Origin: an uncultured archaeon
GTDB lineage: Archaea > Asgardarchaeota > Lokiarchaeia > Sigyniarchaeales > SOKP01
DNA: 30,299 nt
NCBI GenBank assembly: GCA_964447495.1
Contig: CAYUTF010000030.1
Span: 1 to 30,299, forward strand
Reading direction: 5' to 3'
Below, piece by piece: positions 5,549-27,194 of the stretch (position 1 is its first letter; each line of letters opens with the position of its first letter). A program made the position numbers and the translations under genes. Below the pieces are notes generated by a model, which was given only the letters and a program-made list of their open reading frames with translations, was not told the DNA's origin and made no database searches.

Positions 5549-5597
5549 AATACTTATGAACCTCTTTTTTATTGATATCTTAATTATTCTTACTTAT

Positions 5598-9222: not shown

Positions 9223-9385
9223 GAAATACACTTATATCTTGAGTATACTTAGCTTGTCATCTTAAGTTATTTCTAAAATCTTTTTGGGAAATTTGAAATG
9301 GGATAGAATGGTAAATTCAGAGTCTGATTTCAATGAAAATTCCTTTGAAAAATAAAAAAAAAACGTAAAAGTTTTTGATTAAATT

Positions 9386-10711: not shown

Positions 10712-10886
10712 CCTGATTTCGTCTTAATCTTATATAATCTATTATTGAAAAATTGGACTAATTTAATATTTAATATTTACGATTTTTACTTTTATTTAGA
10801 GATGAATAATTAGAAACATGAATAAAGATAATATTTGGAATATATATCACTCAAGAAATAATTAATCTTTAATATTCTCTTAAGAG

Positions 10887-10960
10887 TGGGAGAGGGGGGA
10901 ATCGAACCCCCGACCCCTTGGTCCCAAACCAAGAATCATACCAGGCTAGACCACCCTCCC
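10887..10960 (-). tRNA. tRNA-Pro(UGG), intronless, CCA not encoded
   Basis: Reverse complement GGGAGGG TG GTCTAGCCTGGTATGAT T CTTGG TT-TGG-GA CCAAG GGGTC GGGGG TTCGATT CCCCC CTCTCCC A folds into a cloverleaf. Confidence 0.95.
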
Positions 10961-11116
10961 GTTATAGAGCGAAAGGTAAAAGGTTAAACCAATGCATAAA
11001 CTATATCTTTTAGAGTAACTAATTTTAATTATCGAAAATAATAAAATTTTTCGATATTTGATAATCTTGATAGGAATATTTCTTGTTTATAATTTTCTTT
11101 TAAGTATGATGGAAAG

Positions 11117-11264
11117 ATGAAATGTATCATAAATCTTCAAAAAATTGGAGAAGTTGCTTCTTCAATATTAATTCGATTAAAGCTGACCTTACACTGGGTA
11201 TTTAAAAACTTCGGGATAAAAGTGGCTATAAATCCAACGGGCTATCCCCTCTAAGATGATGAAT
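11117..11264 (+). pseudogene. 5' fragment of a second archaemetzincin gene (nonsense codon, then truncated)
   Basis: MKCIINLQKIGEVASSILIRLKLTLHWVFKNFGIKVAINPTGYPL*DDE aligns ungapped to the N-terminus of 13350-13907 (24/45 identical); the TAA aligns with CAA (Gln). Confidence 0.88.
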
Positions 11265-11430
11265 CGAGGCTTGCCTTTTTTGTTTTAGATTTTATTCAGA
11301 TAATATCAGTGCTAAAAAAGAAAACTTTATAGCCAAAAATGTCAAATGTAAAAGAATAGTCCTTATTCATTTATAAACGGTAATCGCTCCTTTTTTATTA
11401 ATTTAAAATTTTTTTTACAAATGATATAAA

Positions 11431-13059
11431 ATGAGGATCAAATTCAAACCTATAGTTTTAGGTCTTTTAGTATTAAATCTTGTTGTACTTTCGTTCTGTT
11501 TGATAAACTCTCCAAAATCTTCTCTTAATATGGCAGGGGAATACGAAACTGAACAAGATGGGTTCATCACCGATTTGAAAACATCATCAACTTGGAATTT
11601 TACATCCTTAATCATAGATGACACGGGTGCTACGGGTAATTATACTTGGTCCGAGGCTGTTGCACTTCCTTGGTGTAGTGGTTCTGGTACGGAAGGCTCT
11701 CCTTATGTTATAGATGATATTGCTATTCATGATCAAACGATCACGTGTGGATTAGAAATCAGGAACTCTAATGCTCATTTCCTCATCAATAATAGTGAAT
11801 TTGGATATTGGGTTGGCCAATTTGGGATTGGCATAAAATTAACAAACTGTATTAATGGTAAGTTGGCTAACAACTATTTCAATCGCGTGAATTATAGTAT
11901 CTACTTAGATAATTGTAACTCAACCAATTTAATAAAAAATAAATTTAATGCGGTTTGGGTTAATGCCATCACTTTAAATAATAGCAATAATAACTTAATT
12001 AATCAAAATATCATTCCGAATTCATTCGAATGGGGAATTAGACTAAATGAAGGCTCCACCAATAATATTATCTCAGGAAACATAATGGATTCTAATAATT
12101 GGGGTATTGGAGTTGGTGGTGAGAATAATGAAATCTCAGAAAATGTGTTAACTGATAGTGATTACGGTATTATAATATACGGAAATTACAATAATATATC
12201 AAATAATGACGTTCTGAACAGTTATTATGAAGGAATAGAGTTAACTTCTGATAATAACTTAATTTCAGGAAATACTATAAATGAGAACTATTATGGGCTT
12301 CAGATTTGGGCGGGGAAAAACAATACTATTATAGACAACATTGTTAATCAAAATGAGATTTATGGTATTAATTTATCATATGAAAATAATTCTGTTATCT
12401 GCAACCAAATAAATTATAATATAGAAGATGGTCTCGTCGTTAAATATTTGAGTGATAGTACTATATTTGATAACACGATATCACATAATGGGGGAAACGG
12501 AATATTTTGTGAAGAGGTATCAGATATAGTATTTAAACAAAATTTAGTCTCATGGAATTCGCAAAGAAATGTCTATACATATAAGTGCCACAATCTTACA
12601 TTTGTAGAAAATACATTTGAATCTCATGGGAATGAGATGAATCAATGTAGTAATATTTCAATTTTAGCAAATACGTTTAAAGACGCTTTAATTTTTGTTC
12701 ACCATAGCAACTATAATCTTATTCAAGGAAATACAATGAGTGAAGCAGGAATCTATTTAAGCGATAGCAGTTATAACATGATTACGAGCAATACAATCAG
12801 TGTAGATATGAAGCTTTATGGAATCTCTTTAGAACTCGGTAGTAATAATAATACTATTACTGGTAATACCATAACTTATGAACAAGGTGGATGTTTTTAC
12901 GAGGACACGAGTTGCACAGGTAATATCATTGAAAATAACAGTTGCACTCAAAGAATAATATCAGGATTTGAGATAATCGTGTTATTTTCTATTATTTGCA
13001 TAACTTCTGTTGGTCTAATCGTTATATATAAGAAGAAATTAATGTTTAAGAAATTCTAA
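11431..13059 (+). CDS. Secreted right-handed beta-helix (NosD-like) surface protein with Loki-CTERM-like anchor
   Basis: N-terminal hydrophobic segment, WCSGSGTEGSPYVI cap, many GIxL..NNxIxxN repeats, ISGF-TM-KKK tail. Confidence 0.9.
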   Translation: MRIKFKPIVLGLLVLNLVVLSFCLINSPKSSLNMAGEYETEQDGFITDLKTSSTWNFTSLIIDDTGATGNYTWSEAVALPWCSGSGTEGSPYVIDDIAIHDQTITCGLEIRNSNAHFLINNSEFGYWVGQFGIGIKLTNCINGKLANNYFNRVNYSIYLDNCNSTNLIKNKFNAVWVNAITLNNSNNNLINQNIIPNSFEWGIRLNEGSTNNIISGNIMDSNNWGIGVGGENNEISENVLTDSDYGIIIYGNYNNISNNDVLNSYYEGIELTSDNNLISGNTINENYYGLQIWAGKNNTIIDNIVNQNEIYGINLSYENNSVICNQINYNIEDGLVVKYLSDSTIFDNTISHNGGNGIFCEEVSDIVFKQNLVSWNSQRNVYTYKCHNLTFVENTFESHGNEMNQCSNISILANTFKDALIFVHHSNYNLIQGNTMSEAGIYLSDSSYNMITSNTISVDMKLYGISLELGSNNNTITGNTITYEQGGCFYEDTSCTGNIIENNSCTQRIISGFEIIVLFSIICITSVGLIVIYKKKLMFKKF

Positions 13060-13066
13060 AAACACC

Positions 13067-13083
13067 TTTTTTTTATTTTTTTT
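13067..13083 (+). terminator. Archaeal oligo-T terminator
   Basis: Long T tract immediately after the stop codon at 13059. Confidence 0.55.
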
Positions 13084-13349
13084 AATTGGTTTCTATTCTT
13101 GTTAGAATGGTTTTGTTCAATCTACTTATAGAATAGCCAGAATTTGAATTATTTTTGAGGAAACATTTATGAAAAACGACTTGGAATTCCAATAAGTTAA
13201 GTGCGCAATTTAATTTGCTAATCCTTATAGTAATAGATGTGCCAATCACTATTTTAATATCTGTTTAAAATTTAACAATAAATCAAATATGCTTTGGCAG
13301 ATTATAGAAAACCTAGAATTTATTTTTTTCCGAAGGTTATACTCTATAG

Positions 13350-13907
13350 ATGAAAACAGTTGTTTTTATTCAAAAAATTGGAGAAGTGGATACTTCTATA
13401 CTAATTAGGCTAAAAAAGAATTTATCTTGGTTATTAAAAAAATTTTCATTAAAAGTCGAAATAATCCCAAATGCCTATTCAATTCAAGGTGATGAATATC
13501 TGGAAGCAGAACGCCATTATGATGGGGAATTAATTCTGAAGAGACTTGAAAAAAATTTCAAATCAACAATAAAGAATAAGCTTATAGGGATAATTGATGC
13601 AGATATAAAAGGGACTAGAAAGATCCATCTATTTGGTCTATCAAATTTAAGAAGTTCATGCGCATTAATATCGATTGATCGTTTACGCGGTTCTTATTAT
13701 AATAGTTATGAAGATCAAGCACTATTTGAACTGAGAATTTTAAAGGAAGCGACACATGAATTAGGTCATACATTTGGGTTAGATCACTGTACAAATGAGT
13801 GTGTAATGAAGTATTCAAATAATTTAAATGAAGTAGATAAAAAACCAAAAGATTTTTGTCATATCTGCTCTCAAGCGCTTAAAAAATCTGTTAAGACGGG
13901 AAACTAA
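13350..13907 (+). CDS. amzA: Archaemetzincin family Zn metalloprotease (M54)
   Basis: HELGHTFGLDHC..CVM.YS...FCHIC: HEXXHXXGXXH motif, Met-turn and Cys4 site. Confidence 0.92.
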   Translation: MKTVVFIQKIGEVDTSILIRLKKNLSWLLKKFSLKVEIIPNAYSIQGDEYLEAERHYDGELILKRLEKNFKSTIKNKLIGIIDADIKGTRKIHLFGLSNLRSSCALISIDRLRGSYYNSYEDQALFELRILKEATHELGHTFGLDHCTNECVMKYSNNLNEVDKKPKDFCHICSQALKKSVKTGN

Positions 13908-14914
13908 GGATTTAAGTATCGATCTTTAAATTTTTCATAAAGATTCTCACTAATAGTCATTATCTTTTTGCGATCTTTTATGATATTAATTAATTCAGTG
14001 GGAATGTTTTTCAAACCAAAATAATTTCCCGCTAATGAGCCCCCGATTGCTGCTACGGTATCACTATCTCCTCCTGCAGTGGCTAGTTCGTAAATACATT
14101 CTTCAAATGAGGATAAATGCTTTAAAAAAATAAAGATAGCACACGCGACAGTACTTATCGCGTATGGATGAACAAATGCTCTCCCTAAATACTGTTCAAT
14201 AAAGAAGGGTGATTTTACGCCAGCTTGAGAGAATTTTATCAGTCCCGCTTCCATAGGCATATCAAGATGGTCTTTAACTTTATTCAAAATTGCTGTGAAT
14301 TCCTGCCAAATGCCATCTTGAGAATGTGATAATGGTGTGATTATATATTCAAAAAATTCATTAATAGGAAAATCTATTGTAGGATCTTTATCCATTAGAT
14401 ATGCAATCGCTTTCGCAATGACAAGTGCTCCAGCTGAAGCAGCAGGGTGAGAATGTGTTATTACACTCGATTTTATGGCGGCATGTTCTAATCCTTTAGG
14501 ATCTTTACAATAATATAATCCGATGGGGGAAACTCTCATGGCAGTACCATTTCCTCCTGATTTTGATGCTGCCTCCTCCCATGAGATTCCATATTTGAGC
14601 TTTTGAATTGAAGATATGCATCCAAAACCCGGTCCAATTGGCGGATCATCCAACCAATTTACAAATTCTCGGATAAAATAATCAAGGTTAAATCCAGAAC
14701 CGTTTATGAGTGCTTCTGCAGTGTGAAGGGTTAATTGTGTATCATCTGTATAGGTATAAAATAACTTTTTATTAGTTTTTATAAATTCTTTAAAATCTGT
14801 AAATTGCGAATAAATTTTAATTCGAAGTAATCCTTCAAATGGGTGTCCTAAGGTATCACCGATAGCGACACCAATGAGAGTGCCTTTAAATTTATCTAAG
14901 TAATCAATTTTCAT
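13904..14914 (-). CDS. ADP-ribosylglycohydrolase (DraG/ARH family)
   Basis: GVAIGDTLG, YTDDTQL, GNGTAMR, THSHP and GGDSDT motifs. Confidence 0.93.
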   Translation of the reverse strand: MKIDYLDKFKGTLIGVAIGDTLGHPFEGLLRIKIYSQFTDFKEFIKTNKKLFYTYTDDTQLTLHTAEALINGSGFNLDYFIREFVNWLDDPPIGPGFGCISSIQKLKYGISWEEAASKSGGNGTAMRVSPIGLYYCKDPKGLEHAAIKSSVITHSHPAASAGALVIAKAIAYLMDKDPTIDFPINEFFEYIITPLSHSQDGIWQEFTAILNKVKDHLDMPMEAGLIKFSQAGVKSPFFIEQYLGRAFVHPYAISTVACAIFIFLKHLSSFEECIYELATAGGDSDTVAAIGGSLAGNYFGLKNIPTELINIIKDRKKIMTISENLYEKFKDRYLNP

Positions 14915-15134
14915 AAATACTTGAAATCGATTTATATTATGATGAGATAATATCGAGAATTTTATTTATATTTTTTTTCTTAATTCCAAAATTTTATGGA
15001 GATTATTTTTCGGCTTAATTGTATGAATTTGTTTACTAATTAAGCGAATAATATGACAAGGAATAAGCCTTATAAATGAATATTTCCCATTAATAATTTA
15101 ATTAAAAATTTATCATTCTCTCTAAAGTATTATA

Positions 15135-16034
15135 ATGCAGAAATTGGAAAAATTACAAGATGTTATAACTGCACTTTTAACTCCTTTAAAAGAAGATTTG
15201 TCAATCGATGAGGAAAAATATCGTGAGTTCATCAGATTTCAAATAAAAAATGGGTGCCAAATTTTAACAATGGGAACGACTGGTGAAAGTGCGACGCTCT
15301 CTCATAATGAACATCATGAAGCGATTGACATTACGGTTGATGAGGCTAAAAAAAGCGGTAAAAATCCATTTATATTAGCGGGTACTGGCAGTAATTCTAC
15401 GAAAGAGGCAATCTCCCTTTCCCAATACGCTGAAAAAGCGGGGGCAGACGGTCTGCTCTTAGTTGTACCCTATTATAACAAACCGGTACAACATTCTCTC
15501 ATTGATCATTTTTCTGCGGTTGCTGATTCTGTTAGCTTCCCAATAATATTATATAATGTGCCCAGTCGTACAGGATCAAATTTAGAGCCTAAAACTGTCA
15601 ATCAATTGGCTCGAGCGAAAGATAATATCGTAGGAATGAAGTGTGCAAGCGGAAATATTGATCAAATTACAAAACTTATCAAGATGGTTCCTGATGATTT
15701 CATTGTATTAAGCGGAGATGATGGTATGACGTTCCATATCATGGCTCTTGGAGGAAAGGGTGTTATAAGCGTTGCATCAAATATTATTCCTGATAAAATG
15801 GTCAAGTTCACACAAATGATGAATAAGGGAGATTGGGATGCCGCGAGAGATATGCATTTGGAATTATATGATCTATTTAAAGTATTATTTATTGAATCTA
15901 ATCCAGGACCAGTGAAATATGCTGCTGAGGTAATGGGATTGATGAATAAAAGGATGCGACTCCCTCTTACACCCCCATTAGAAGAAAATCAAGAGGAAAT
16001 CAAAACTGTCTTAAAGAAATTAAAACTTATTTAA
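15135..16034 (+). CDS. dapA: 4-hydroxy-tetrahydrodipicolinate synthase
   Basis: GTTGES, GTGSNST, PYYNKP, YNVPSRTG, Schiff-base Lys (GMKCA), SGDD, NPGPVK. Confidence 0.96.
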   Translation: MQKLEKLQDVITALLTPLKEDLSIDEEKYREFIRFQIKNGCQILTMGTTGESATLSHNEHHEAIDITVDEAKKSGKNPFILAGTGSNSTKEAISLSQYAEKAGADGLLLVVPYYNKPVQHSLIDHFSAVADSVSFPIILYNVPSRTGSNLEPKTVNQLARAKDNIVGMKCASGNIDQITKLIKMVPDDFIVLSGDDGMTFHIMALGGKGVISVASNIIPDKMVKFTQMMNKGDWDAARDMHLELYDLFKVLFIESNPGPVKYAAEVMGLMNKRMRLPLTPPLEENQEEIKTVLKKLKLI

Positions 16035-16070
16035 TAATTACTTTTTAATAAAATAAAGTAAGGGATAAAA

Positions 16071-16892
16071 TTGATAAAGTTACTAATTTTAGGACCGACA
16101 GGTTCTATGGGAAAATTAATAAGTGAGCTAGCTCTGCAAGATGAGGAAATTGATGTGGTTGCTGCTTGCGGAATAGAAAATATTGGTGATGAATTAGGGA
16201 CTCTTGTATCAGTCAAAGATAATAAAAAGGTGAAAGTGAGTGACATTAATGATTTGGAAAATGTTATCCGCGAAACTAAGCCTGATGTCGCAGTAGATTT
16301 TACAATTGCCAAAGCGACTGAGAATAATTGTTTAATTTGTGCTCAAAATGCCTTAAGGTGCGTCATTGGAACAACAGCATTATCCCAAGAATTTCTTAGT
16401 GAATTTGAGAAACTAGTGAAAGTTAATAAAGCCCCTGCGGTTATATCACCAAATATGGCTACAGGAATGAATGTTTTTTTTGAAATCACCAAAAAATTGG
16501 CAAATTACTTAAAAGAATGGGATATCGAAATAATCGAGGCTCACCATAATAGAAAGCAAGATAATTATAGTGGTACCTCTCTTAAAATACTTGACATTAT
16601 TTGTGAGACTATCGGTTGTAAAAAAGAGGAGGTAGCTAAATATGGACGGTCTAAAGGAAAAAGTTTAAGAGAAAAAGGCGCGAAAAATGAAATAGGGATT
16701 CATTGTATCCGTGCTGGAGATATCGTTGGAGAACATATAATCTTATTTGCCGGTTCTGGTGAATATATCGAACTCAAGCATAACGCAATAAATAGATATT
16801 GCTTTGCTGAGGGTGCTATAAAAGCAATAAAGTTTATTGCGAGACAAAAAGAAGGCAAAATTTTTGAAATGAAAGATGTTCTAAATCTTTAA
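16071..16892 (+). CDS. dapB: 4-hydroxy-tetrahydrodipicolinate reductase
   Basis: GPTGSMG, VDFT, GTT, PNMATG, EAHHNRKQD..SGT, RAGDIVGEH, FAEGA; TTG start. Confidence 0.95.
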   Translation: MIKLLILGPTGSMGKLISELALQDEEIDVVAACGIENIGDELGTLVSVKDNKKVKVSDINDLENVIRETKPDVAVDFTIAKATENNCLICAQNALRCVIGTTALSQEFLSEFEKLVKVNKAPAVISPNMATGMNVFFEITKKLANYLKEWDIEIIEAHHNRKQDNYSGTSLKILDIICETIGCKKEEVAKYGRSKGKSLREKGAKNEIGIHCIRAGDIVGEHIILFAGSGEYIELKHNAINRYCFAEGAIKAIKFIARQKEGKIFEMKDVLNL

Positions 16893-16897
16893 TATTT

Positions 16898-17404
16898 TTA
16901 TATTGAGAAATTAATTTTCGGATTAGTTTCAAGTTCATGTTTACATATTTCTGCTTTTTGTTCTAATTCCTCATCAAGATTTAATAACTCCACTAATTCT
17001 AAAGGGGAATCCTCTTTATCACTGCTATTATTTATTATCGGTGATCTACACAGATTTCTTCGATTTATATCAGAACATGTTTGATTAATATTCATCTCAT
17101 TCTTTCTATAAATCTGTGGATACTTTGAACAAAAGTTTCTTTCATGATTATTCGTTGAATTGTCAGAAATTGCGTTTAATTTCAGACTATCATCTGCCTT
17201 TATCATACTAATAGAAGTATAAGGTGGAAAGGGTAAGATTGGTTTAACGCCGAAAAAATCACGGAGAGTATTAATAAGGCGTCTAGGATTAACGGAACAG
17301 CTCAATCTCTTAGAGGATATTTTTATAACACTAGACCCAGAATCTCCTGGGGGATAATCCAAGTGATTTTTGCGTCGGCATGAGCTAGGGGATTTTTCGG
17401 TCAA
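16898..17404 (-). CDS. Hypothetical low-complexity protein; start uncertain, possibly decaying
   Basis: 168-aa ORF filling the gap, with no motif. The frame stays open upstream to about 17476, and an SD (GGAGG) further up is followed by TTG ATT TAA in the same frame. Confidence 0.4.
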   Translation of the reverse strand: MTEKSPSSCRRKNHLDYPPGDSGSSVIKISSKRLSCSVNPRRLINTLRDFFGVKPILPFPPYTSISMIKADDSLKLNAISDNSTNNHERNFCSKYPQIYRKNEMNINQTCSDINRRNLCRSPIINNSSDKEDSPLELVELLNLDEELEQKAEICKHELETNPKINFSI

Positions 17405-17755
17405 AAGTTTAAATAAGTAAGAATTAAAATTTTTAATTATATTAAATCTACATGCTTTTGTATATATATATTTATATTAAATCAATCAACCTCCTACAAT
17501 TAAAAAAGCTTATAGTAGTATAAACTAAAATTGCGAAAAAAACTTTTATGTATTAAAAACTAGTAATATTTATATATAAGTGTTAAAGATAAGCCAATGA
17601 TTTGTAAAGATTAGGTAAAATGAATCAAATTATTGATACATGTAAATAAATAAACAACTTAACAGCTTATAAAGAGCAAAAAGCAATTTAATACTTAAAA
17701 TAAATTACTTGATTTATGTCAATTTATTTAAAAAAAGAAAAAAATAGAAAAAAAG

Positions 17756-19903
17756 TTAGGATTTGAGTCGTTTTCGTACTAAGAGCCCTGAAATAATCCC
17801 GATAAAGCCTAAAAGCAAATATGGGTTAAACCCCGGTATCGCGGGTGGCTCGGGAGGGGGTTCTTCCGTGCTGTCCTTAAATACTTGTACTTGAGCAGCC
17901 CCAATCATCCCCGCAGAATTGTTCGCATAGAAAACAATGGTGATGATACCATCCGACAGTGCAAACCATGCAGCCTGATTAAGCGAACCCGTTAAGCTAC
18001 TTGCTGAATGATTAGTCAATCCCCCATCAAATGTGTACCAGATGGACTCGTATGGACCCGTAATGGAAAGAGTGTAACTGGGGGCATTTTCGCCTATAAT
18101 CTGACTGTCAGTCGGAGAATTTATGGTAATATCAGGTGTTGGTGGTTGTGGTCCATCGGATGGACTCTTAACCACAATTACAGAGTTAGATCCGATATTG
18201 TCCGTATCATCCCTCGCATAAAATCTAATTGTCACTGGACCGTCAGATATAGCGTTCCAGGCTGTTTGATTGATGGTCCCGGTGAGAGATGTAATCGTAT
18301 AATTATTTGCACCATTATCAATCGTGTACCAGAACTCGTCTAAGTTGGCTTCATTAATTGTTATATCAAAGATAGGCGCATTATTAAATTCTTCACTCGC
18401 AGTTGGTGAGACGATTGCGATAATAGGGGCAAGGATGTCTTTTCTAACTGTTACTTCCGCTTGCTCTATATTGTTTGCTGTGTCATTCGCGAAGAAAGTA
18501 ATCGTAACCGTCCCATTTACGAATTTATCCCATTCGTTTTGGTCAATCCCTCCAGAAGACTCAAGGATTTTAAGATTTGTTAGGCCTCCATCAAGGGAAT
18601 ACCAGTTTGAATCTATATTTTCATCAACAATGGTGATATTATAATCTGGTGGATCTGTTCCATAGAGTACATTTTTTAGAGGGGAATGAACCTTGATATC
18701 AGGTAGAAATCCATCCGTTTGATGAAATAGAAACACATTTTCTCCATAGTTGTTCATACTTCCTCCGACAATGTATTGACCGTTTTGAGAAATTGCGGTG
18801 GAAGTCACCCAATCACGGCTATCGTGAGTCCACATAGGAACGGAACTAGTACGATTAAAAAAATGAAGCCCATAAGAATTTTCTGTCCCAACTACAATAT
18901 AATTGCCATGTTTAGAAATAGCTACTGTTGGATCCAAGCCATGAAATGATATTGGTCTAATAGCGGAATTATACCATAAAGGTATGGGGCTTGATCGATT
19001 AAAGAGATAAACACCATTTCCAGCACCAACAATAATATAATTTTCGTCAGCAGAAATTGCTATTTTTCCATCAGTGTGCCCCGTTGAGTAATTCCATAAC
19101 GGTATATTATTAGATCTTTCAAGAAGATAAAAATTAGTGTCTCCACTGTAAGCGATAATATATCTCCCGGTGGAAGAAATTCCGACTGAAGCAAAATTTG
19201 CTGGGGATGTGAAAGTCCATAATGGTGTAGAGTTGCTTCGGTGAAAAAAATACAAATCATTACAACATCCACTCCCAACAATATAACTTCCATCAGAAGA
19301 AATTCTTATAAAATCAACAATATTCTTTGTGGTATATTCCCATATTGGAATCGGACTAGTACGATTGAATAAATAGATTTTGCTGTCTTCGCTTCCTGCA
19401 ACAATGTAAGACGCGTCAGCTGAAATGGAAACTGAACAGATATTTCCACCTGTAGTGTAATTCCAAATTGGAACATGACTCTCCTTTCCAAACAAATACA
19501 CATTTTTATCACGCGATCCTGCTACGATATAACTCCCATTAGACGAGATAGCAACCGTAAACACAGAATCGCCGGTAGTATAGTTCCACAATGGAGTCGA
19601 ACTATTTCGATTAAATAAATAGATTTGATTGTCATATTCCCCTACCACGACATATTGTCCATCGTCAGATATATCAACTGAATTAACTTGGCGATTCGCC
19701 GTAAAATTCCACAGAGAAGTTGAACTTGAAGTATGTAATTTAGCTAATGGTTGATATTCCAGAAGTGCATTATGTGAGATATTCTTTCTTTGATTTTGAA
19801 TACCTATATTTGAAGAAAATAGTAGCCCATGAAATAATGTAATAGTACATGAAAATAACAAGAGGAGAAAAAAGTAATTTTTGATTTTTTTCATTTTTAT
19901 CAC
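17756..19903 (-). CDS. Secreted 8-bladed beta-propeller (WD40/PQQ-like) with 3 Ig-like repeats and Loki-CTERM-like anchor (likely ATG start 19894)
   Basis: Eight ~41-aa repeats (P(L/I)WxY...V.IS.xGxYIV.G...YLF), three ~90-aa WY(S/T)xDGG..FYAN repeats, PPAIPGF-TM-RKRLKS. Confidence 0.9.
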   Translation of the reverse strand: MIKMKKIKNYFFLLLLFSCTITLFHGLLFSSNIGIQNQRKNISHNALLEYQPLAKLHTSSSTSLWNFTANRQVNSVDISDDGQYVVVGEYDNQIYLFNRNSSTPLWNYTTGDSVFTVAISSNGSYIVAGSRDKNVYLFGKESHVPIWNYTTGGNICSVSISADASYIVAGSEDSKIYLFNRTSPIPIWEYTTKNIVDFIRISSDGSYIVGSGCCNDLYFFHRSNSTPLWTFTSPANFASVGISSTGRYIIAYSGDTNFYLLERSNNIPLWNYSTGHTDGKIAISADENYIIVGAGNGVYLFNRSSPIPLWYNSAIRPISFHGLDPTVAISKHGNYIVVGTENSYGLHFFNRTSSVPMWTHDSRDWVTSTAISQNGQYIVGGSMNNYGENVFLFHQTDGFLPDIKVHSPLKNVLYGTDPPDYNITIVDENIDSNWYSLDGGLTNLKILESSGGIDQNEWDKFVNGTVTITFFANDTANNIEQAEVTVRKDILAPIIAIVSPTASEEFNNAPIFDITINEANLDEFWYTIDNGANNYTITSLTGTINQTAWNAISDGPVTIRFYARDDTDNIGSNSVIVVKSPSDGPQPPTPDITINSPTDSQIIGENAPSYTLSITGPYESIWYTFDGGLTNHSASSLTGSLNQAAWFALSDGIITIVFYANNSAGMIGAAQVQVFKDSTEEPPPEPPAIPGFNPYLLLGFIGIISGLLVRKRLKS

Positions 19904-19907
19904 ATCG

Positions 19908-19975
19908 TGATTTTTGTCAAAATCGTTATTAAATATTTAAGTCTAGCTTCTATTTATAAATATTTTAAAAAAAGA
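19908..19975 (-). promoter_or_regulatory. Promoter module copy 1 (TATA-like TTTATAAATA; TAACGATTTTGACAAAAATCA)
   Basis: Aligns over ~70 bp with 23710-23780, upstream of the paralogous surface gene. Confidence 0.65.
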
Positions 19976-19989
19976 AAAAAAGGGAAAAA

Positions 19990-22900
19990 TTAGGATTTTA
20001 GGCGCTTTCGAATCATCATAATCGAAATCACACTGATCACTCCTATAACCAAGGAAAGATCGTAACCTGGAATTCCGGGAGGTGGGGTAGATCCCTGTGA
20101 ATTTTTGGTAATCATTATTGAATTTTGACCAATATTCCCTAACTCATCTCTTGCATAAAAAGTGATGGTAACTTGTCCATTTGGTAGGGAGTCCCATGCA
20201 CTTTCGGATATCGGACCACTGAGTTCCGTAATGGTGATATTGGTGACTCCTCCATCCAGCGAATACCAATAGGATTCCAAGTGAAACTCATCGATTTCAA
20301 TCAAATATCCTGGGGCATCATCTAGAAACTCTTGGTTATCTTCAGGTGCTATTATGGTGATTATAGGACTTGTGGAGTCTTTATATATTGTTATTTCAGC
20401 AAAATTTTCATTAGAAAATGAATCATTAGCATAGAACCGAATGGTTATTAGTCCATCTAAGGCAGTGAACCATTCTGATGCATCTAATGTTCCGGATAGC
20501 TCTGAAAGTGAAGCGTTGGTAACCCCTCCATCGATTGTATACCAAAATGAGTCTAAATTAGGCTCGGTAATGTTAATATTGTATGTTGGAGGACCAGAGA
20601 AATATTCATCCATTAAAGGCGATATAATAGTAATATACGGACTAGTTGTGTCTTTATTGATGTCAATTTGATAGTTAAATTCATTTCCAGCGAAGTCTCT
20701 TGCATAAAATGTGAGATTTACTATTCCGTCAGAATGGGCAGTCCATTCATCTTGATCAATGGTTCCATTTGCAGTGAAAGTGATATTTGTGACACCTCCA
20801 TCTAAAGTATACCACATAACATCAAGATTCGCATCATATATATTTACCGTGAAATTTGGCGCTGCTTCTCCGAACGCTTCACCTTCTGTGGGAGTAATTA
20901 AGTTTATCGTGGGAACTATCGAGTCTTTGATAATACTTATAGAAGATGAATTGATACGTCCGAAAGTATCATTTGCATAGAATACAAGTTCTATAATTCC
21001 ATCGCTTTGAGCCATCCATTCAGTTTGATCGATTGTTTGATTAGATGTAAATGTTATATTTGTCAAACCTCCATCTAGTGTATACCATAATGTATCTAAA
21101 TTGACCTCGACTATCTCAATTGTGAATTCTGGAGCTTCTAAAGGAAAATTTTGATTTGATGTAGGGGAAATAATATTAATTTGAGGTGGAATAGTATCTT
21201 TTCGAAGAGATATCGTAATCGTTCTAGTATTATCCAAGGTGTCATTAGCATAAAATTTTAATGTTATAGGACCGTCTGGTAAAACAGACCACGTCGATTG
21301 ATCTATAATCCCTGTTAATCCACAGGAAATATTTGTCAAATCATTATCTAATGAATACCAGACATTATCAAGATTACTTTCGTTTACGATTAAAGAGAAC
21401 TCAGGAGCAGTGCCATTAATTATTTCTCCATTAAGAGGGGTTACTACAGAAATATAAGGTGCAAGAATGTCTTTGCGTAAAATTACTTCATTAAATCCTA
21501 CATTATTTAAGGTATCATTTGCCCAAATTTTTAGAATCACTGTACCGTTTCCTATCTCATTCCATATTAAGGGATCAATGGAACCCGTCCATGTATTATT
21601 AGAAGTACTATATGTTGCATTATATAAACTGTACCATCGCTCTGAAATACTATTGATATCACTGAAACTCACACTCACAATTGGAGCATTTAGTCCTACT
21701 AACTCCATCGGACTTGGATCATTTATTTGGATATTTGGTGGAAAGATATCCTTCCATACAACTGCTTTTTTGGTTCCAATATGACCTAATGTATCATTTG
21801 CGTAAATGGTAATAATTAAAGATCCATTTGATATTAAATCCCAAATATTTTGCTCTATATATCCTAACCAGGTTGAATTATCAGTTATGTGAGTGCTGTT
21901 TTCTAATCGATACCATATATCATCTATTCCATCAGGATCACTCGTAAAAATACTAATCCCACTTGGAGCGGATTTTCCGAATATATCTCCTTCATTTACT
22001 CCTAATATTGATATTTGTGGTCGACCTATAGAATCTTTTATAACTTTGACTACATTTGAATTTTCCCAACCCTTACTATCATTAACATAAAGGTGAATCC
22101 AGACATCTCCATCATTCATTAGATCCCATACACTCTGATCAATAGAACTTAAATAGGTATAATTTTGTGTTTGGGTAAGCCCATCATCTAAGTTATACCA
22201 TACTGTATCTGCTATCCCCCGCGAAATGTCGTAAGTAATTTCCGGAGCTGTTGTATTAATATAATCATCTGTGGAAGGTGAAATTATAGTTATTAATGGA
22301 GAATCCCACCATCTTGGATTTTGGTCTTGAATTGTTATTGTGGGATTGTATAAGGTTTGAGCTGTATCTCCATATCCATCATCGTTAGCGTCTTCACCAC
22401 TGTAATAGGAGAAATAGTTATAATTCCATGAATTAGCATTATACACACTTGTCCTTTCATCTATAGCAGCATTTCCAATTATGGTATTATAGGTAAACGA
22501 TCCTGGGTAAGTGGCATGATCATCAAAAGAAGTGATGTAAATATTATAATTAGTGTTTCCAGACACAGTATTATTATAAAATTCTAAATTACGTCTGGGG
22601 GAATACTCATCAGGATGATATATGCCATATCCATCATTATTACTTATAAAATTATCAGATACCATCGTATCATGATCAACTGCTACTATAATTCCATGAT
22701 CGCCATTATTCTCAACAATGTTCTCATCGATTGTGGTATGTTCTGCCCAGAATATTTGAATCCCTCTATCACCGTTTCCGGTGATATTATTATTTCGGAT
22801 ATTTACAGTGTTTGCAAATGAACCATCTAATACAGAAATACCGGCTCGAGAGTTAAATTTAACATTATTATTATTAATACCGAGGAAGTTTGTGCCACTT

Positions 22901-23697
22901 GTACCTGTAAAATAGACCCCTGCACGATTATGTGAAATATTGTTGCGTAAAATAGCATTATTAGAACCACCATCCCAATATATACCACCTCCATTTACAT
23001 AACCAGCTCCTGTATTATAACTTATCGTATTATCTTCTATATCACAGTTATTACATCCCGTAAATTGAAGTCCATTCCCGTCGTTATTGCTAATATTGTT
23101 TTCTAAAACATTATAACTGTCACTGTAATATAAAATTACACCTCCATAATTCGAAGTGATGTTGCTCCATCTCACTGTATTAAAACTGGAAGAGGATAAA
23201 TAAATCGAATAGTCGTTATTATCATGAATATTACAGTCTTGAACGACGATTGCATTACTTCCACTCTCAATTCGAATTGCGTTATCGTTATTGTATAGTT
23301 CACAATCTTCAATAATCCCCGAATCGGTGTTATAGATCCCTATTGCATATGAGTTTGCATTATAGATTGTACAGTTGCGTATTTCGAAGTCCCAAGTATT
23401 TGAATTTTCTATTAAAATTCCAAATGTATTACCCGTACAATCAAGAGATACATTCTCAATAATATACTTCGAAAAAGTTGAGTCCCATTGAATCCAGTCA
23501 TAAGCAGCTTCTGAAGATGACCAATTATTATCAATATGGATAAAATTAAAATCATTTTCATTCCAAAAGCCAGAATTTTTTAGATTTAGAGTAGTGTCTC
23601 GTTCTTCATTCCAAATTTGCTGAAAATAATTATAATGACCTACTAAGCTTAAGAGTACAATTATTATGAAGCTAAAGCTAATTTGTTTTTTATTCAT
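19990..23697 (-). CDS. Large secreted beta-helix (NosD-like) protein with 8 Ig-like repeats and Loki-CTERM-like anchor
   Basis: N-terminal hydrophobic segment, beta-helix repeats, DANDDGYGD Ca-binding-like loop, eight P.I.IISP...WY.LDGG...FYANDT repeats, PPPGIPGY-TM-RKRLKS. Confidence 0.92.
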   Translation of the reverse strand: MNKKQISFSFIIIVLLSLVGHYNYFQQIWNEERDTTLNLKNSGFWNENDFNFIHIDNNWSSSEAAYDWIQWDSTFSKYIIENVSLDCTGNTFGILIENSNTWDFEIRNCTIYNANSYAIGIYNTDSGIIEDCELYNNDNAIRIESGSNAIVVQDCNIHDNNDYSIYLSSSSFNTVRWSNITSNYGGVILYYSDSYNVLENNISNNDGNGLQFTGCNNCDIEDNTISYNTGAGYVNGGGIYWDGGSNNAILRNNISHNRAGVYFTGTSGTNFLGINNNNVKFNSRAGISVLDGSFANTVNIRNNNITGNGDRGIQIFWAEHTTIDENIVENNGDHGIIVAVDHDTMVSDNFISNNDGYGIYHPDEYSPRRNLEFYNNTVSGNTNYNIYITSFDDHATYPGSFTYNTIIGNAAIDERTSVYNANSWNYNYFSYYSGEDANDDGYGDTAQTLYNPTITIQDQNPRWWDSPLITIISPSTDDYINTTAPEITYDISRGIADTVWYNLDDGLTQTQNYTYLSSIDQSVWDLMNDGDVWIHLYVNDSKGWENSNVVKVIKDSIGRPQISILGVNEGDIFGKSAPSGISIFTSDPDGIDDIWYRLENSTHITDNSTWLGYIEQNIWDLISNGSLIITIYANDTLGHIGTKKAVVWKDIFPPNIQINDPSPMELVGLNAPIVSVSFSDINSISERWYSLYNATYSTSNNTWTGSIDPLIWNEIGNGTVILKIWANDTLNNVGFNEVILRKDILAPYISVVTPLNGEIINGTAPEFSLIVNESNLDNVWYSLDNDLTNISCGLTGIIDQSTWSVLPDGPITLKFYANDTLDNTRTITISLRKDTIPPQINIISPTSNQNFPLEAPEFTIEIVEVNLDTLWYTLDGGLTNITFTSNQTIDQTEWMAQSDGIIELVFYANDTFGRINSSSISIIKDSIVPTINLITPTEGEAFGEAAPNFTVNIYDANLDVMWYTLDGGVTNITFTANGTIDQDEWTAHSDGIVNLTFYARDFAGNEFNYQIDINKDTTSPYITIISPLMDEYFSGPPTYNINITEPNLDSFWYTIDGGVTNASLSELSGTLDASEWFTALDGLITIRFYANDSFSNENFAEITIYKDSTSPIITIIAPEDNQEFLDDAPGYLIEIDEFHLESYWYSLDGGVTNITITELSGPISESAWDSLPNGQVTITFYARDELGNIGQNSIMITKNSQGSTPPPGIPGYDLSLVIGVISVISIMMIRKRLKS

Positions 23698-23709
23698 ATT
23701 ATAATTAAC

Positions 23710-23780
23710 TGATTTTTGTCAAAAAAAATCGTTATAAAAGAATTAAGGCAAGCTCTTATTTATAGTTATTTTAAAAAAGA
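23710..23780 (-). promoter_or_regulatory. Promoter module copy 2
   Basis: tgatttttgtcaaaa(aaaa)tcgttat...aagctcttatttatagttattttaaaaaaga aligns with 19908-19975. Confidence 0.65.
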
Positions 23781-23834
23781 GAATAAAAATTGTTTATTCG
23801 AATGTTAAAGCAGTAGAAATTTAAATAAAAAAAA

Positions 23835-24251
23835 TTATTTAAAGAAATTTATTATCAAATCCCAATTACCTTGAAATTGAGAAATATCGCTTAGATTGAT
23901 ATATTTTTCCTTCCAAATTTGACTAATATGTTTACTCTGAACGATATAATATATAGGTTCGTTTTCATCCTTCCATTCGATAAAGATAAAAATAAGATTT
24001 TCACTGGGTTTAGGTTTTGATTTAACAACAAACGCCGAATTTTTATATCTAGCTGAAGATTTTACTTGTATGCTTAAAGTCCTAGTACCGTCGATTGTTG
24101 CTAAAATATCCACATTTGCTATCCCTTCTTTCATTAATCCTGCTGAAATTCCAAATCTGCTTAATTTTGCGCAAACTAGATATTCACCCGCATCCCCAAC
24201 TAGTTTTGAACTTAAATCTTCTCCAAAAATATTCTTCCCTTTATTAGACAT
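23835..24251 (-). CDS. Small PD-(D/E)XK superfamily nuclease
   Basis: GDAGEYLVCAKL...NVDILA...SIQVKS has the E / D / QxK catalytic pattern. Confidence 0.78.
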   Translation of the reverse strand: MSNKGKNIFGEDLSSKLVGDAGEYLVCAKLSRFGISAGLMKEGIANVDILATIDGTRTLSIQVKSSARYKNSAFVVKSKPKPSENLIFIFIEWKDENEPIYYIVQSKHISQIWKEKYINLSDISQFQGNWDLIINFFK

Positions 24252-24408
24252 AAGTATATCAATTTTGTTTTATTGGTAGATTTTTATACTAATTCGAATA
24301 TAAAAACTCCGACATTTTATTAAAATAATCATTTGAACTCTCGAATTGTTAAAATGCATATTAAAAACAATTAGTGGGTTCTCTTCAAAATTGTCTTTTA
24401 TCATGAGA

Positions 24409-24590
24409 CTATCAAATGAAAACTTGAGAAACTAGTAAAAGATTTAAATACTACAGTAGAAATCGAATTGAAACATCAAGCTCATAATCGCTATTGTTTT
24501 GCTGAAGGAGCAATTAAAGCCATTAAATTCATTGTGCAAGCAAACGAAAATAAAATTTATAGTACTGATGAAGTTCTGGGATTAGTTTAG
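24409..24590 (+). pseudogene. dapB: Collapsed remnant of a second dapB
   Basis: 24462-24590 encodes IELKHQAHNRYCFAEGAIKAIKFIVQANENKIYSTDEVLGLV*, matching the DapB C-terminus (22 of first 24 aa identical). 24424-24436 TTGAGAAACTAGT also matches internal dapB 16405-16417 (EKLVK). Confidence 0.9.
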
Positions 24591-24595
24591 AAAGT

Positions 24596-24737
24596 GAGAT
24601 AAAATTATAAGGGTATCTCAGAGCAGATCAGTATTATCATCAATCTGATAAACTCAAATTTCATTATGCCAACTCTTCATTTAGAATGAATAAAGGGTAT
24701 CCAGTCCTTAAACATTCTTATTTTATAATTTTATCTC
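24596..24737. mobile_element. MITE-like 142-bp element bounded by perfect 15-bp inverted repeats
   Basis: GAGATAAAATTATAA (24596-24610) and TTATAATTTTATCTC (24723-24737); GT dinucleotide on both flanks. Confidence 0.35.
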
Positions 24738-24797
24738 GTAATAAATAAAACTACCACAGTTTTTATCTTTTTTTATTAGAAATAGTATAGTAGCTAT

Positions 24798-26111
24798 TTA
24801 CTTAAGATGATCTGGTATTATTTGGCTCTTTAATAAATCATCGTAGGTTTCTGCTTCTCGAATTGTATATGATTTTCCATTGGAAAGTAAGATCTCAGCA
24901 GCTCTAGGACGAGAATTATAAGAACTGCTCATTGTGTATCCATATGCTCCAGTATCAAGTATTGCAAGATAATCGCCTTCTTTTAACTCCATAAACTCTC
25001 TTTCTTTTCCAAGAATATCGCCGGATTCACATATTGGGCCCACAATGTCGTATTTCATCGTTGCACTCTTCTCTGTTTTAATACATGGAATGATATGATG
25101 GTAAGAACCGTATAACGTAGGTCGGATTAATGTATTGAATCCTGCATCAACTCCTGCGAATTTTTTATAGCCATTATCCTTAATCGTGTTGATTTGAGTT
25201 ACTAAAATTGTTGATTCTGCAGTTAGAAATCTTCCCGGTTCGATTTTTAGAGTTGGAGTTCCAATATTGCCCTTCTTAATCAACTCAATAAAAGGTTTAA
25301 AAACAATATCCTTATATAAATCTAAATTAAAAGGTTCTTCATTGGGGCGATATGGAATTCCTAAGCCTCCTCCAAAATCTACGAAATCAAATTTAATCTC
25401 TAAAACGCTAGAAATATTTTCTATTATTGCTAAATATTTTTCTATTGCTTTTTCATAATTCATTACATCATTTATACCCGAGCCTATATGAGTGTGAATC
25501 CCAAACCGTTGAAAACCAATCTCTTTAGCTTGTTTATATGCTTTAACAATCTGATTTTCTAATATCCCAAACTTAATTTCTTTTCCTGCGGTAATATCAT
25601 GAACATGATGACCTGCTCCAAATTCAGGATTATATCTAAAAGAGATTATCTCTTTTTCTTTTCCCAAATTTTCATAAATTTGTTTTACTCTTCGCAATTG
25701 ACTTAGACTATCTAAATTTATAGTAATATTAGTCTTAATTGCAAATCTAAAATCATCGTCTGTAAACATATTTCCCGTATACATTATCTTTTCTGGAGGG
25801 ATTCCCGCTTTCAAGCATGAGCGAATTTCTCCTTGTGAAGTACAATCGAAATAAGAACCCTCTAACTCTAATATTTTTAAAATACTCAAGTTTGAGTTAG
25901 CTTTTACCGCATAATGGATTTTATAATGATCATATGCAGATTTTAATATCTCATTAATTTCCTTAAAACGATTTCGAATAATTCCCTCATTAGTAATATA
26001 AGTCGGAGTCCCATATAACAATGCGAGTTCCTTTACGTTTACATTAGAAAAATATAACTGATTCTCTTTGTATTCTAATTCTTTTCTTTTTAACCAATTA
26101 ATATAATCCAT
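24798..26111 (-). CDS. lysA: Diaminopimelate decarboxylase
   Basis: YAVKAN (PLP Lys), HIGS, DFGGGLG, EPGRF, GPICESGD, GAYG..MSSSYNSRP. Confidence 0.96.
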   Translation of the reverse strand: MDYINWLKRKELEYKENQLYFSNVNVKELALLYGTPTYITNEGIIRNRFKEINEILKSAYDHYKIHYAVKANSNLSILKILELEGSYFDCTSQGEIRSCLKAGIPPEKIMYTGNMFTDDDFRFAIKTNITINLDSLSQLRRVKQIYENLGKEKEIISFRYNPEFGAGHHVHDITAGKEIKFGILENQIVKAYKQAKEIGFQRFGIHTHIGSGINDVMNYEKAIEKYLAIIENISSVLEIKFDFVDFGGGLGIPYRPNEEPFNLDLYKDIVFKPFIELIKKGNIGTPTLKIEPGRFLTAESTILVTQINTIKDNGYKKFAGVDAGFNTLIRPTLYGSYHHIIPCIKTEKSATMKYDIVGPICESGDILGKEREFMELKEGDYLAILDTGAYGYTMSSSYNSRPRAAEILLSNGKSYTIREAETYDDLLKSQIIPDHLK

Positions 26112-26132
26112 TTTTTTAACTCTCTATATTAT

Positions 26133-27014
26133 TTAAAACTCTATCTTGTCAATATAGCCTGTAAAAACCTTTATGGCAGGACCCTCCATAAACACTTCCT
26201 TCCCGTTGTAATGAATTATTAGATCTCCTCCATCATTATGGATAAGGATAGGAGTATTTTTCTCAAACAATCCTAATATCGTTCCCACAACAACTGCCGC
26301 ACAACTACCTGTCCCACATGAGTTGGTTATCCCAACACCTCTTTCAAAGACTCGAACGTTTGCTTCCTTTTTTGAAATGATTTTTACAAATTCTACATTA
26401 GTTTTTCTTGGAAAATGCTCATCTGACTCAATATTAGCCCCATATTTATTCAAATCAATATCAGATATTAAATTTTTTGTAAAAATAACCGCATGGGGAT
26501 TTCCCATCGAAACTGCTGAAAAATTAAAGATTTTATCCAATACAACAATTTGCTCATTTATACATTGAGAGGGATAATCATCTAATTCGACGGGTATTTG
26601 TTCACAATCTAATATTGGTTTTCCCATATCGATCTTAACAGTTGAAACTGTATTGTTAGTAATATTTAATTGTGCTATATTTATCCCCTTAAGTGTCTCG
26701 ATGGAGATCTCTCCCTTTTTGATAATATCATGCTCATAGATGTATTTGCTAAAGCAACGGATACCATTCCCGCACATTTCAGCTTCAGAACCGTCATTAT
26801 TAAAAATCCTCATTCGAATATCCGCTTTTTGGGACTTACATACATAAATTAATCCGTCAGCGCCGATAGAAAAATGAGGCGTACATAATAATTTCGCAAG
26901 CTCATTCATTTTTTCCTCGGGAATTTTATACTTAAGATTATTGATTAAGATATAATCATTCCCTAATCCATGATACTTCTCAAATTCCAAATCTTCGGTA
27001 TTATAATTGTTCAT
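26133..27014 (-). CDS. dapF: Diaminopimelate epimerase
   Basis: KYHGLGNDY, IGADG, EMCGNGIRC, MGNPH, NVEF, ERGVG.T.SCGTG. Confidence 0.97.
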   Translation of the reverse strand: MNNYNTEDLEFEKYHGLGNDYILINNLKYKIPEEKMNELAKLLCTPHFSIGADGLIYVCKSQKADIRMRIFNNDGSEAEMCGNGIRCFSKYIYEHDIIKKGEISIETLKGINIAQLNITNNTVSTVKIDMGKPILDCEQIPVELDDYPSQCINEQIVVLDKIFNFSAVSMGNPHAVIFTKNLISDIDLNKYGANIESDEHFPRKTNVEFVKIISKKEANVRVFERGVGITNSCGTGSCAAVVVGTILGLFEKNTPILIHNDGGDLIIHYNGKEVFMEGPAIKVFTGYIDKIEF

Positions 27015-27194
27015 TAAATATAGAATAATATTTTATTTTGTTGAATTACATATAAAAATTGATTCTTAATTGAAAAAAATTTCTAAAGATAGTCAGCATC
27101 ATTTATGACTCTCAAAAATATTTAAACTTTAAAATCTTTTATACACTAAGTTATTTTAAAAATTTTTATTAAAAATCATCTTAATACGATTACA

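Follow-up and report, generated by a model that had tools for sequence, protein, structure and literature searches.

A probable flexible genomic island of cell-surface genes at the dapB/lysA junction of a Lokiarchaeial metagenome contig

Results

The locus and the sequences compared

We analysed a stretch of 30,299 nt, here called the window, which corresponds to positions 1-30,299 of the forward strand of contig CAYUTF010000030.1 (assembly GCA_964447495.1). It is a metagenome contig of an uncultured archaeon placed by GTDB in Archaea; Asgardarchaeota; Lokiarchaeia; Sigyniarchaeales; SOKP01 (Lokiarchaeial, Promethearchaeota). Its content is that of an ordinary chromosome: CDC48, a helix-turn-helix (HTH) protein, malate dehydrogenase, ferredoxin, a tRNA-Pro, several beta-helix surface proteins and the genes dapA, dapB, lysA and dapF. 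The subject of this study is the junction between dapB and lysA, where the two genes stand 7.9 kb apart and 7,569 bp separate the stop codon of an intact dapB from the main piece of a second, broken dapB 3' end, the relic (Table 1). As the first-pass annotation had described, the two copies bracket two Loki-CTERM genes, an open reading frame (ORF) and a nuclease gene, and its codon counts proved exact: over codons 233-256 the relic and the intact gene agree in 22 of 24 residues, 13 of which are spelled by other codons.

For comparison we used loci L001-L019 from a scan of species-representative genomes with a DapB alignment; at least 19 Asgard loci stood among the matches listed, and all counts of loci given below refer to these. 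P numbers denote database proteins, most of them metagenome predictions (DapB relatives P0002-P0120; DapA proteins such as P0122-P0126). Among the loci L014 stands nearest to the window, with a DNA identity of about 76-82%. We refer to the clade of L014 as L-type, and to the other Lokiarchaeial allele class, recognised by the motif DNYSGTS and the tail FEMKDVLNL, as F-type.

Table 1. Features at and around the dapB/lysA junction, in window positions
Feature	Position	Strand	Evidence or remark
dapA	15135-16034	+	Pfam DHDPS E 2.8e-90; read as resident left flank
dapB, intact, full length	16071-16892	+	DapB_N and DapB_C; TIGR00036 E 6e-75
dapB codons 1-138, read as resident (L014-clade) part	16071-16484	+	residue comparison, trees
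dapB crossover interval, codons 139-159, conserved WDIEIIEAHH stretch	16485-16547	+	between informative sites 138 and 160
dapB codons 160-273 and stop, read as foreign F-type part	16548-16892	+	motif DNYSGTS, tail FEMKDVLNL
Spacer with doubtful 168-aa ORF	16893-17755 (ORF 16898-17404, -)		no family match
WD40/beta-propeller protein, 715 aa, cargo	17756-19903	-	WD40, PQQ_2 domains
Beta-helix/Ig-like protein, 1235 aa, cargo	19990-23697	-	Beta_helix, NosD, Big_3_3, Big_13
Small PD-(D/E)xK nuclease-fold protein, 138 aa, cargo	23835-24251	-	phrog_29029, predicted fold
Relic piece 1, dapB codons 112-118 (EKLVK)	24424-24442	+	19-mer match to L014 dapB
Relic piece 2, resident dapB codons 233-274 and stop	24462-24590	+	tblastn, DapB_C, TIGR00036
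Conserved structured element, native follower of dapB stop, outside island	24593-24745	.	nhmmer; marks resident right flank
lysA	24798-26111	-	Pfam; read as resident right flank
dapF	26133-27014	-	Pfam; read as resident right flank

The intact dapB gene

The two parts of the intact DapB have different relatives. Residues 1-150 are nearest to P0043 (77.3%) and L014 (74.0%), proteins that are only 62-66% identical to it in residues 160-273. The latter stretch is nearest to P0005 and P0011 (86.8%), which in turn reach 65% in residues 1-150, where F-type proteins overall lie at 61-67%. The 36 clade-informative sites divide along the same line: up to site 144 the window is L-type at 34, 59, 133, 136 and 138, F-type at 60 and neither at 95 and 144, and from site 160 on it is F-type at 23, L-type at 3 and neither at 2 (Fisher p 0.0015 for 5 L/1 F against 3 L/23 F). 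When trees were built for the two parts, the window fell into a set with 13 L-clade rows for residues 1-150 (98, starred) and into a set with 29 F-clade rows for residues 160-273 (99, starred), and for the second part an approximately unbiased (AU) test rejected the grouping of the window with the L rows (p 0.025).

These comparisons indicate that the working dapB is a chimera, with a resident L-type 5' part and a foreign F-type 3' part (about codons 160-273). As the last L-type site is 138 and the run of F-type sites begins at 160, the left crossover is placed in codons 139-159, within the conserved stretch WDIEIIEAHH. The first-pass annotation had taken dapB for a homologous anchor, and a crossover inside the gene agrees with this; its proposal that a complete dapB arrived with the cargo does not stand, the foreign portion being only about codons 160-273 and residues 1-150 belonging to the resident clade. 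A tree of residues 1-232, which placed the window among F-type rows and suggested that the whole gene was foreign, was driven by residues 160-232 and was corrected by splitting the gene.

The first-pass annotation had also advised searching for a crossover along dapA and dapB together. This located the crossover in dapB as described and none in dapA, which appears to be resident: the window DapA is 94-95% identical to three database proteins and then 83-84% identical to P0125 and P0126, evenly along the protein in the case of these two. Against L014 the window DapA had seemed mosaic, with a break near residue 80 and a drop in nucleotide identity at 15367; a left crossover in dapA was nevertheless ruled out, the aberrant protein being that of L014 itself. 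The L014 gene (L014 9077-9973) deviates at residues 81-200, where it is 60-72% identical to the window against 70-100% for other relatives, and overall its product is closest to that of L003 (84.3%), which suggests a recombinant dapA in the L014 genome.

The broken dapB 3' end

Piece 2 of the relic aligns in frame with the intact DapB over 24462-24584 (tblastn, 28 of 41 residues identical) and is followed by one codon and a TAG at 24588-24590. It corresponds to the very end of the family profiles, namely positions 83-121 of 121 of DapB_C (Pfam, E 2.7e-9) and the last 40 positions of TIGR00036 (231-270 of 270, E 1.2e-8). Relative to the intact copy its DNA identity is 64.2%, with a nonsynonymous divergence (dN) of 0.32 and a saturated synonymous divergence (dS). 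Its closest relatives are P0043, P0055 and P0057 (38/41 residues) and L014 (36/41), compared with only 22-28/41 for the listed proteins with the FEMKDVLNL tail. To the L014 dapB it is 85.4% identical in nucleotides, with dN 0.069 and dS 0.75, and would therefore have been the end of a working gene, under purifying selection, until not long ago.

The internal deletion that the first-pass annotation had suspected from a second EKLVK piece was borne out. Piece 1 matches nt 335-353 of the L014 dapB at 18 of 19 positions (blastn E 2.6e-4), begins 38 nt upstream of piece 2 and lies in the same frame; it is the sole 19-mer with at most one mismatch to that gene among the 29,299 plus-strand window positions outside dapB and the relic. 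The two pieces and the 18-nt spacer between them form an uninterrupted ORF of 56 codons with an ATG at 24420 (24420-24590).

Downstream of the island the window returns abruptly to the order of L014. Window positions 10887-16863 align in order with L014 4822-10793, and positions 24461-27019 with L014 10696-13252, so that L014 10696-10793, the last 98 bases of its dapB, matches both dapB 3' copies of the window. On the right, collinearity resumes exactly at 24462, with the relic at 82.5% identity, then the conserved element at 86.4%, then lysA and dapF; the 117 bases upstream of this point are 44.7% identical. The right flank as a whole is collinear with L014 at 75.8% nucleotide identity (67-83% along lysA and dapF), and its LysA and DapF are 75% and 79% identical to those of L014, against 60-74% for other loci. 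Both comparisons, contiguity with the native downstream DNA and nearest kinship with the L014 clade, identify the relic as the resident dapB allele, still in place, in keeping with the first-pass view of it as a displaced resident. In addition, P0043 and P0055 are the nearest relatives of the relic as well as of the N-terminal portion of the intact DapB, so the two stretches point to one original gene.

Two dapB-derived stretches in the same orientation within 8 kb are also what would be left if dapB had been duplicated in place and one of the two paralogues had then diverged and decayed. The two 3' ends, however, fall into different, well-separated clades in the C-terminal trees, as expected of the separately evolving lineages proposed at first pass, and dS between them is saturated, yet the relic is 85% identical to its L014 orthologue. 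Nor do relatives carry two complete ancestral dapB paralogues, the circumstance that the first-pass annotation had named as telling against it: all 17 listed loci with a full-length dapB have a single one. We regard duplication in place as extremely improbable.

The junctions also bear on the soundness of the assembly. A chimeric contig that joined two co-occurring strains within the conserved dapB could be imagined at the left switch, where the sequence is so highly conserved that long k-mers could be common to both strains, and the window is indeed a metagenome contig. At the right junction, however, unrelated island DNA meets codon 233 with at most 6 nt shared, a join that a k-mer assembler would not create, and the displaced relic beside the island would remain even if the left join were false. 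Chimeric DapBs of several other database proteins, moreover, switch in the same interval. An assembly artefact is in our judgement very unlikely.

The insertion site in related loci

In Asgard loci the common gene order is M54 peptidase, ADP-ribosylglycohydrolase (-), dapA, dapB, lysA (-), dapF (-), a small Loki-CTERM protein and cdhD. The first-pass annotation had proposed a search for an empty site in relatives, and such sites were found: dapB and lysA are directly adjacent in 10 of the 16 loci with enough downstream sequence, with a gap of 218-298 bp that a conserved element some 155 nt long occupies. The other six informative loci (L003, L007, L008, L009, L011 and L015) hold other cargo. 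In L003 (an alpha/beta hydrolase), L008 (a PAS histidine kinase), L011 (a CAAX-type protease) and L007 (a 2.6-kb insert) it measures 1-2.6 kb and is unrelated to the window island; in L009 more than 10 kb with transporters follow dapB and in L015 a kinase fragment does, neither locus reaching lysA. The site thus both exists empty and recurrently receives inserts, and on this comparison the dapB/lysA junction reads as a recurrent insertion point, or hot spot. A search for dapB relics in the inserts of these six loci gave none at E up to 0.1, except for one weak antisense match (E 0.076), and the genes of the window island were absent from the 19 listed loci, apart from a WD40-repeat similarity in L019.

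The conserved element itself (nhmmer E 7.6e-38) occurs once in the window, behind the relic, and no second copy was found in the window behind the intact dapB. It is present in 15 of the 19 loci (L001-L008, L010-L014, L016 and L017), at full length in 13, with 71-87% nucleotide identity, and is better conserved than the flanking genes. It can be drawn with a 13-pair AU-rich terminal stem, for which L016 shows compensatory changes, a variable central hairpin and a GGG/CCC hairpin. When the alignment is inspected by eye, the A/T column in TCAG(A/T)GCAG also covaries with the T/A column in CAAC(T/A)CTTCAT, a pattern that L016 does not fit. A comparison with Rfam gave no match at gathering score and only weak minus-strand matches to archaeal C/D-box small RNAs (24616-24671; sR44 E 0.19, sR2 E 0.29). 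The element may be an undescribed small RNA gene.

Cargo genes and the search for a recombinase

Both large cargo proteins combine a signal-peptide-like N-terminus with a tail of the form PGF/PGY, hydrophobic stretch, RKRLKS. Their Loki-CTERM scores (19.5 bits for the WD40 protein and 18.4 bits for the beta-helix protein) lie just below the cut-off of 19.9, and we predict that both are secreted surface proteins with Loki-CTERM-type anchoring. The best database relative of the WD40 protein shares 73% of its residues over 79% of the query, and none of the rest exceeds 47%; the 1235-aa protein matches Beta_helix with E 6.6e-62. The two genes, whose proteins differ, share noncoding modules that are 72-79% identical up- and downstream (19880-19981 with 23682-23787, and 17714-17776 with 19951-20010; repeat families D8, D9, D12 and D14), which suggests common regulatory cassettes.

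The 168-aa ORF in the spacer has no match in Pfam, NCBIfam, PHROG or PADLOC, and its Atlas recognition of 1092 is within the range of shuffled sequences; it is probably not a gene. Stop-to-stop ORFs of the spacer at 16893-17755 gave no Pfam match and the spacer shows no similarity to any listed locus, and a blastx comparison of the spacers with all ORFs of the listed Asgard loci and of the window gave no trace of donor genes. Base composition is not informative as to the origin of the island, because the GC content at third codon positions of its genes (0.22-0.31) is within the window range (0.19-0.37).

No integrase, transposase, excisionase, phage, plasmid or defence-system profile of four libraries matched any ORF or spacer ORF of 16893-24461, and PADLOC matched no island protein. 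Neither is there an attachment-site (att)-like border repeat besides the diverged dapB copies, or a flanking tRNA, the sole tRNA of the window (tRNA-Pro, 10886-10960, -) being 6 kb away. The first-pass statement that the island lacks a recombinase agrees with these searches; the island is not free of DNA enzymes, though, as its right-hand gene encodes a predicted PD-(D/E)xK nuclease.

A site-specific element that targets the 3' end of a gene and brings a replacement end, its integrase since lost, would leave much the same picture. In E. coli, e14 and phage 21 integrate into icd and leave the pseudogene icdC, and, going by the accessible part of PMC13626634, the likeness extends to an intact metabolic gene with an insert-supplied 3' end, to differences that are largely synonymous and to a displaced 3' pseudogene at the far border. 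The window differs in having no integrase, excisionase, phage or plasmid gene, and no common core beyond the ATCGAA (6 nt) that is all that positions 16767 and 24462 share, nor any border repeat. Its boundaries disagree as well, the foreign segment beginning near codon 160 and the relic at codon 233 or 112; the cargo consists of ordinary chromosomal surface genes; and in other lineages unrelated single genes occupy the same site. We consider the remnant of such an element a very improbable source of the island.

The small nuclease-fold protein matches phrog_29029 (E 7.2e-21), ThaI below that profile's cut-off (E 1.7e-4) and Atlas PD-(D/E)xK/DUF4365 clusters (0.95-0.96). It has 255 relatives at E <=0.001, and D48, Q62 and K64 do not vary across 54 aligned sequences. 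The best PDB folds for its AlphaFold2 model (predicted local distance difference test 93.5) were the homing endonuclease I-Ssp6803I (template modelling score 0.62, E 1.6e-5, 17-20% identity), the SPARDA nuclease domain, Hjc resolvases and PvuII.

A nuclease of this kind might have driven the insertion, as in intronless homing, by cutting in or near dapB, so that repair dragged in the island and co-converted the dapB 3' part. Free-standing homing endonucleases produce mosaic flanking genes, and the mosaic flank of the island resembles a co-conversion tract; the nuclease gene, the right-hand gene of the island, lies 170 bp from the relic, and the nearest solved fold is that of a homing enzyme, followed by the Hjc resolvases. 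Free-standing enzymes of the homing type are reviewed, for T4-type phages, in the accessible part of PMC2988022. The identity to I-Ssp6803I is nevertheless low, restriction enzymes and the SPARDA domain match about equally, and at the third catalytic position Q, not D/E, is invariant. No homologue of the nuclease stands near dapB in the 19 listed Asgard loci, and tblastn against a phage collection gave no match. The six other cargo-bearing loci show no similarity to the island genes, and 11 cargo ORFs of L003, L008, L009, L011 and L015 (Pfam; the L007 insert left out) contain no nuclease family. Clean homing, besides, would leave no relic. The chance that the nuclease drove the insertion in this way seems to us very small.

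Recurrent exchange within DapB

The switch seen in the window is not confined to it. For 135 DapB sequences, the distance between two proteins in residues 1-150 says little about their distance in residues 160-273 (r 0.17 for 9,045 pairs): a difference of at most 10% in the first part goes with one of at least 28% in the second in 83 pairs, and 17 show the reverse. All six pairs that we profiled change identity between the 121-150 and 151-180 windows, as illustrated by P0009 and P0108, whose identity falls from 83-100% to 37-67% at the switch. The C-terminal part comes in two forms. DN(Y/F)SG(T/S)S, which the window has, accounts for 57 of the 137 sequences, and D(A/S/V)PSG.., seen in all 17 loci of the alignment, accounts for 80. 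The chimeric junction is thus not special to the island, since the same switch recurs in the profiled pairs and discordant halves are common. By these comparisons the window crossover is one instance of a recurrent dapB recombination point near residue 155.

A more far-reaching scheme, which we put forward as unlikely, is that two anciently diverged forms of the dapB C-terminal part re-assort time and again near WDIEIIE-HH, the 3' part serving as a portable homology arm for surface cassettes behind the stop codon, and that the nuclease may trigger the exchange.

Other exchanges and indels in the window

Further differences from L014 were noted to the left of the dap genes. At 11322-14166, which takes in a NosD-like surface protein, an M54 peptidase and the end of the ADP-ribosylglycohydrolase gene (its 3' part), nucleotide identity to L014 is for the most part 85-96%, apart from a divergent patch at 12217-12666 (65-80%). 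Elsewhere the identity is 61-83%, and it drops sharply at about 14167, inside the glycohydrolase gene. The stretch has the look of a recent exchange with the L014 lineage by homologous recombination, separate from the island. Beside the tRNA-Pro, 9237-10886 (1.65 kb, where L014 has about 110 bp) contains a gene (9386-10711, -) for a beta-helix/NosD-like protein of 441 aa whose tail is Loki-CTERM-like, and reads as a second surface-gene indel; a Pfam scan of the 441-aa ORF gave only beta-helix domains, no wider recombinase scan of 9237-10886 having been made. A block of 2.8 kb (4820-7615) with BON-domain and EncFtn/rubrerythrin-like proteins and a malate/lactate dehydrogenase is absent from L014, where the flanking alignments run from 3174 to 3185.

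Imports from the L014 lineage so close by are relevant to the polarity of the event. If polarity were reversed, the F-type chimeric dapB and the island would be the old residents, and the relic, the conserved element, lysA and dapF would have been imported from an L014-like donor, with an illegitimate join at the left end of the import. As mosaics are common among DapBs, the combination of L-type 5' and F-type 3' parts in a resident gene is possible. Such a history nevertheless needs two events where one suffices, and one and the same L clade is indicated by both flanks, by the dapB 5' part and by the relic. The right flank, moreover, shows ordinary divergence from L014 along lysA and dapF (67-83%), unlike most of the recent import at 11322-14166. 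We hold the reversed polarity to be quite unlikely.

Discussion

Our results are probably best explained by a flexible genomic island of cell-surface genes that entered the convergent dapB/lysA junction by dapB-anchored recombination, without a site-specific recombinase. The incoming DNA would have come from another Lokiarchaeial lineage and contained the 3' portion of an F-type dapB, beginning near codon 160, with some 7.6 kb behind its stop codon: the spacer, the two Loki-CTERM surface genes and the PD-(D/E)xK nuclease gene. Their joint transfer rests on parsimony, because no donor locus was recovered among the listed Asgard loci. A homologous crossover in codons 139-159 put the F-type 3' portion behind the resident 5' part and so kept a full-length dapB, while the resident 3' end was displaced rather than replaced and now survives as the two-piece relic (codons 112-118 and 233-274) 7.6 kb downstream, beside its native element, lysA and dapF. 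Selection for lysine synthesis would explain why only a dapB-regenerating event is seen. Of the 'selection handle' proposed in the first-pass annotation, this much stands, that the event regenerated an intact dapB as such selection would require; the rest of that idea goes beyond the observations.

For the right-hand join two routes come into consideration. Codons 112-118 are present both in the relic and in the resident-type part of the intact gene, which suggests a partial duplication of dapB. Campbell-type insertion-duplication, in which circular DNA recombines by a single crossover and comes to lie between a hybrid gene and a truncated copy, fits such a duplication: in the window, too, a full-length hybrid gene and a truncated copy flank the insert, and homologous recombination alone would suffice. 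On this route a circular DNA with a dapB fragment would have recombined once, and codons 119-232 would later have been deleted from the useless copy. The window departs from a plain Campbell-type insertion in this later loss and in that no circular intermediate or replicon gene is seen in it.

Alternatively, a linear fragment may have entered by homology-facilitated illegitimate recombination. This is the model for displaced 3' ends ('C-terminal displacement') in Rhs and type VI secretion system (T6SS) effector loci in the accessible part of PMC5361080, which cites de Vries and Wackernagel 2002, Prudhomme 2002, Meier and Wackernagel 2003 and Jackson 2009. It describes, as in the window, one conserved anchor and an old 3' end pushed downstream as an orphan, and also an opposite end joined without homology, which the window may share. 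The window has an anchor crossover within dapB, homology that stops abruptly at 24462 and a resident gene that lacks codons 119-232. It differs from the Rhs and T6SS loci, as far as that part of the source describes them, in that its anchor is a housekeeping enzyme gene instead of a polymorphic toxin gene and in keeping no orphan immunity-type gene. From plain linear-fragment recombination it differs in the apparent duplication of part of the anchor gene (codons 112-118), which piece 1 implies.

Several points weigh against the entry of the island by dapB-anchored recombination. The donor locus was not found, the WD40-repeat similarity in L019 being the only likeness to an island gene in the 19 listed Asgard loci. 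DapB chimeras are common, so the dapB chimera could predate the island or have arisen separately. The right junction is not readable at base level from the recipient sequence alone, and relic piece 1, at only 19 nt, is ambiguous between donor and resident (18/19 to L014, 17/19 to the intact copy by count from the printed sequences). An AU test of the window with the F rows on residues 1-150 gave p 1e-56, which is not meaningful because the F rows are not one group on that partition, so that the test is not a fair one. The window is a metagenome contig, its structure known from the assembled sequence alone, and the 120 DapB relatives were picked by similarity to a chimeric query, which may lower the half-to-half correlation.

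Whichever route made the right-hand join, the window island belongs to the class of replacement flexible genomic islands, of which the cell-wall island of Haloquadratum walsbyi is reportedly an archaeal example. The accessible part of Lopez-Perez, Martin-Cuadrado and Rodriguez-Valera (2014, PMC4033161) describes these islands as exchanged by homologous recombination via their flanks and as typically encoding exposed structures. Like them, the window island occupies a fixed site between conserved genes, varies in gene content by lineage, carries cargo for exposed structures, has no integrase and shows a burst of mostly synonymous divergence, or recombination breakpoint, in its boundary gene. 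Unlike them, its exchange was not clean, the resident gene end having been displaced and kept as a relic, and its boundary gene visibly encodes a chimeric protein drawn from two deeply diverged allele classes. What is compared here, furthermore, is lineages about 77% identical in DNA and not strains of one species, and the host is an Asgard archaeon.

Our searches of the literature found no paper on dapB in Lokiarchaea or on Loki-CTERM, and, for the broader literature on recombination and islands in Asgard archaea, no such title among the matches listed. Asgard mobile elements are described in the accessible part of PMC8813620 as site-specific, integrating at tRNA sites. The dapB/lysA locus adds to this a concrete, base-level case of gene flow between Lokiarchaeial lineages by homologous recombination. 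It also makes dapB a poor phylogenetic marker in Lokiarchaeia, because the two halves of the gene often differ in history. In sum, we see surface-gene swapping of a known kind in an unusual lineage, with the recurrent dapB domain swap as the most promising lead. The surface-protein repertoires of these archaea would then vary at fixed hot spots, as they do in bacteria and haloarchaea, which bears on the recognition of viruses and partners.

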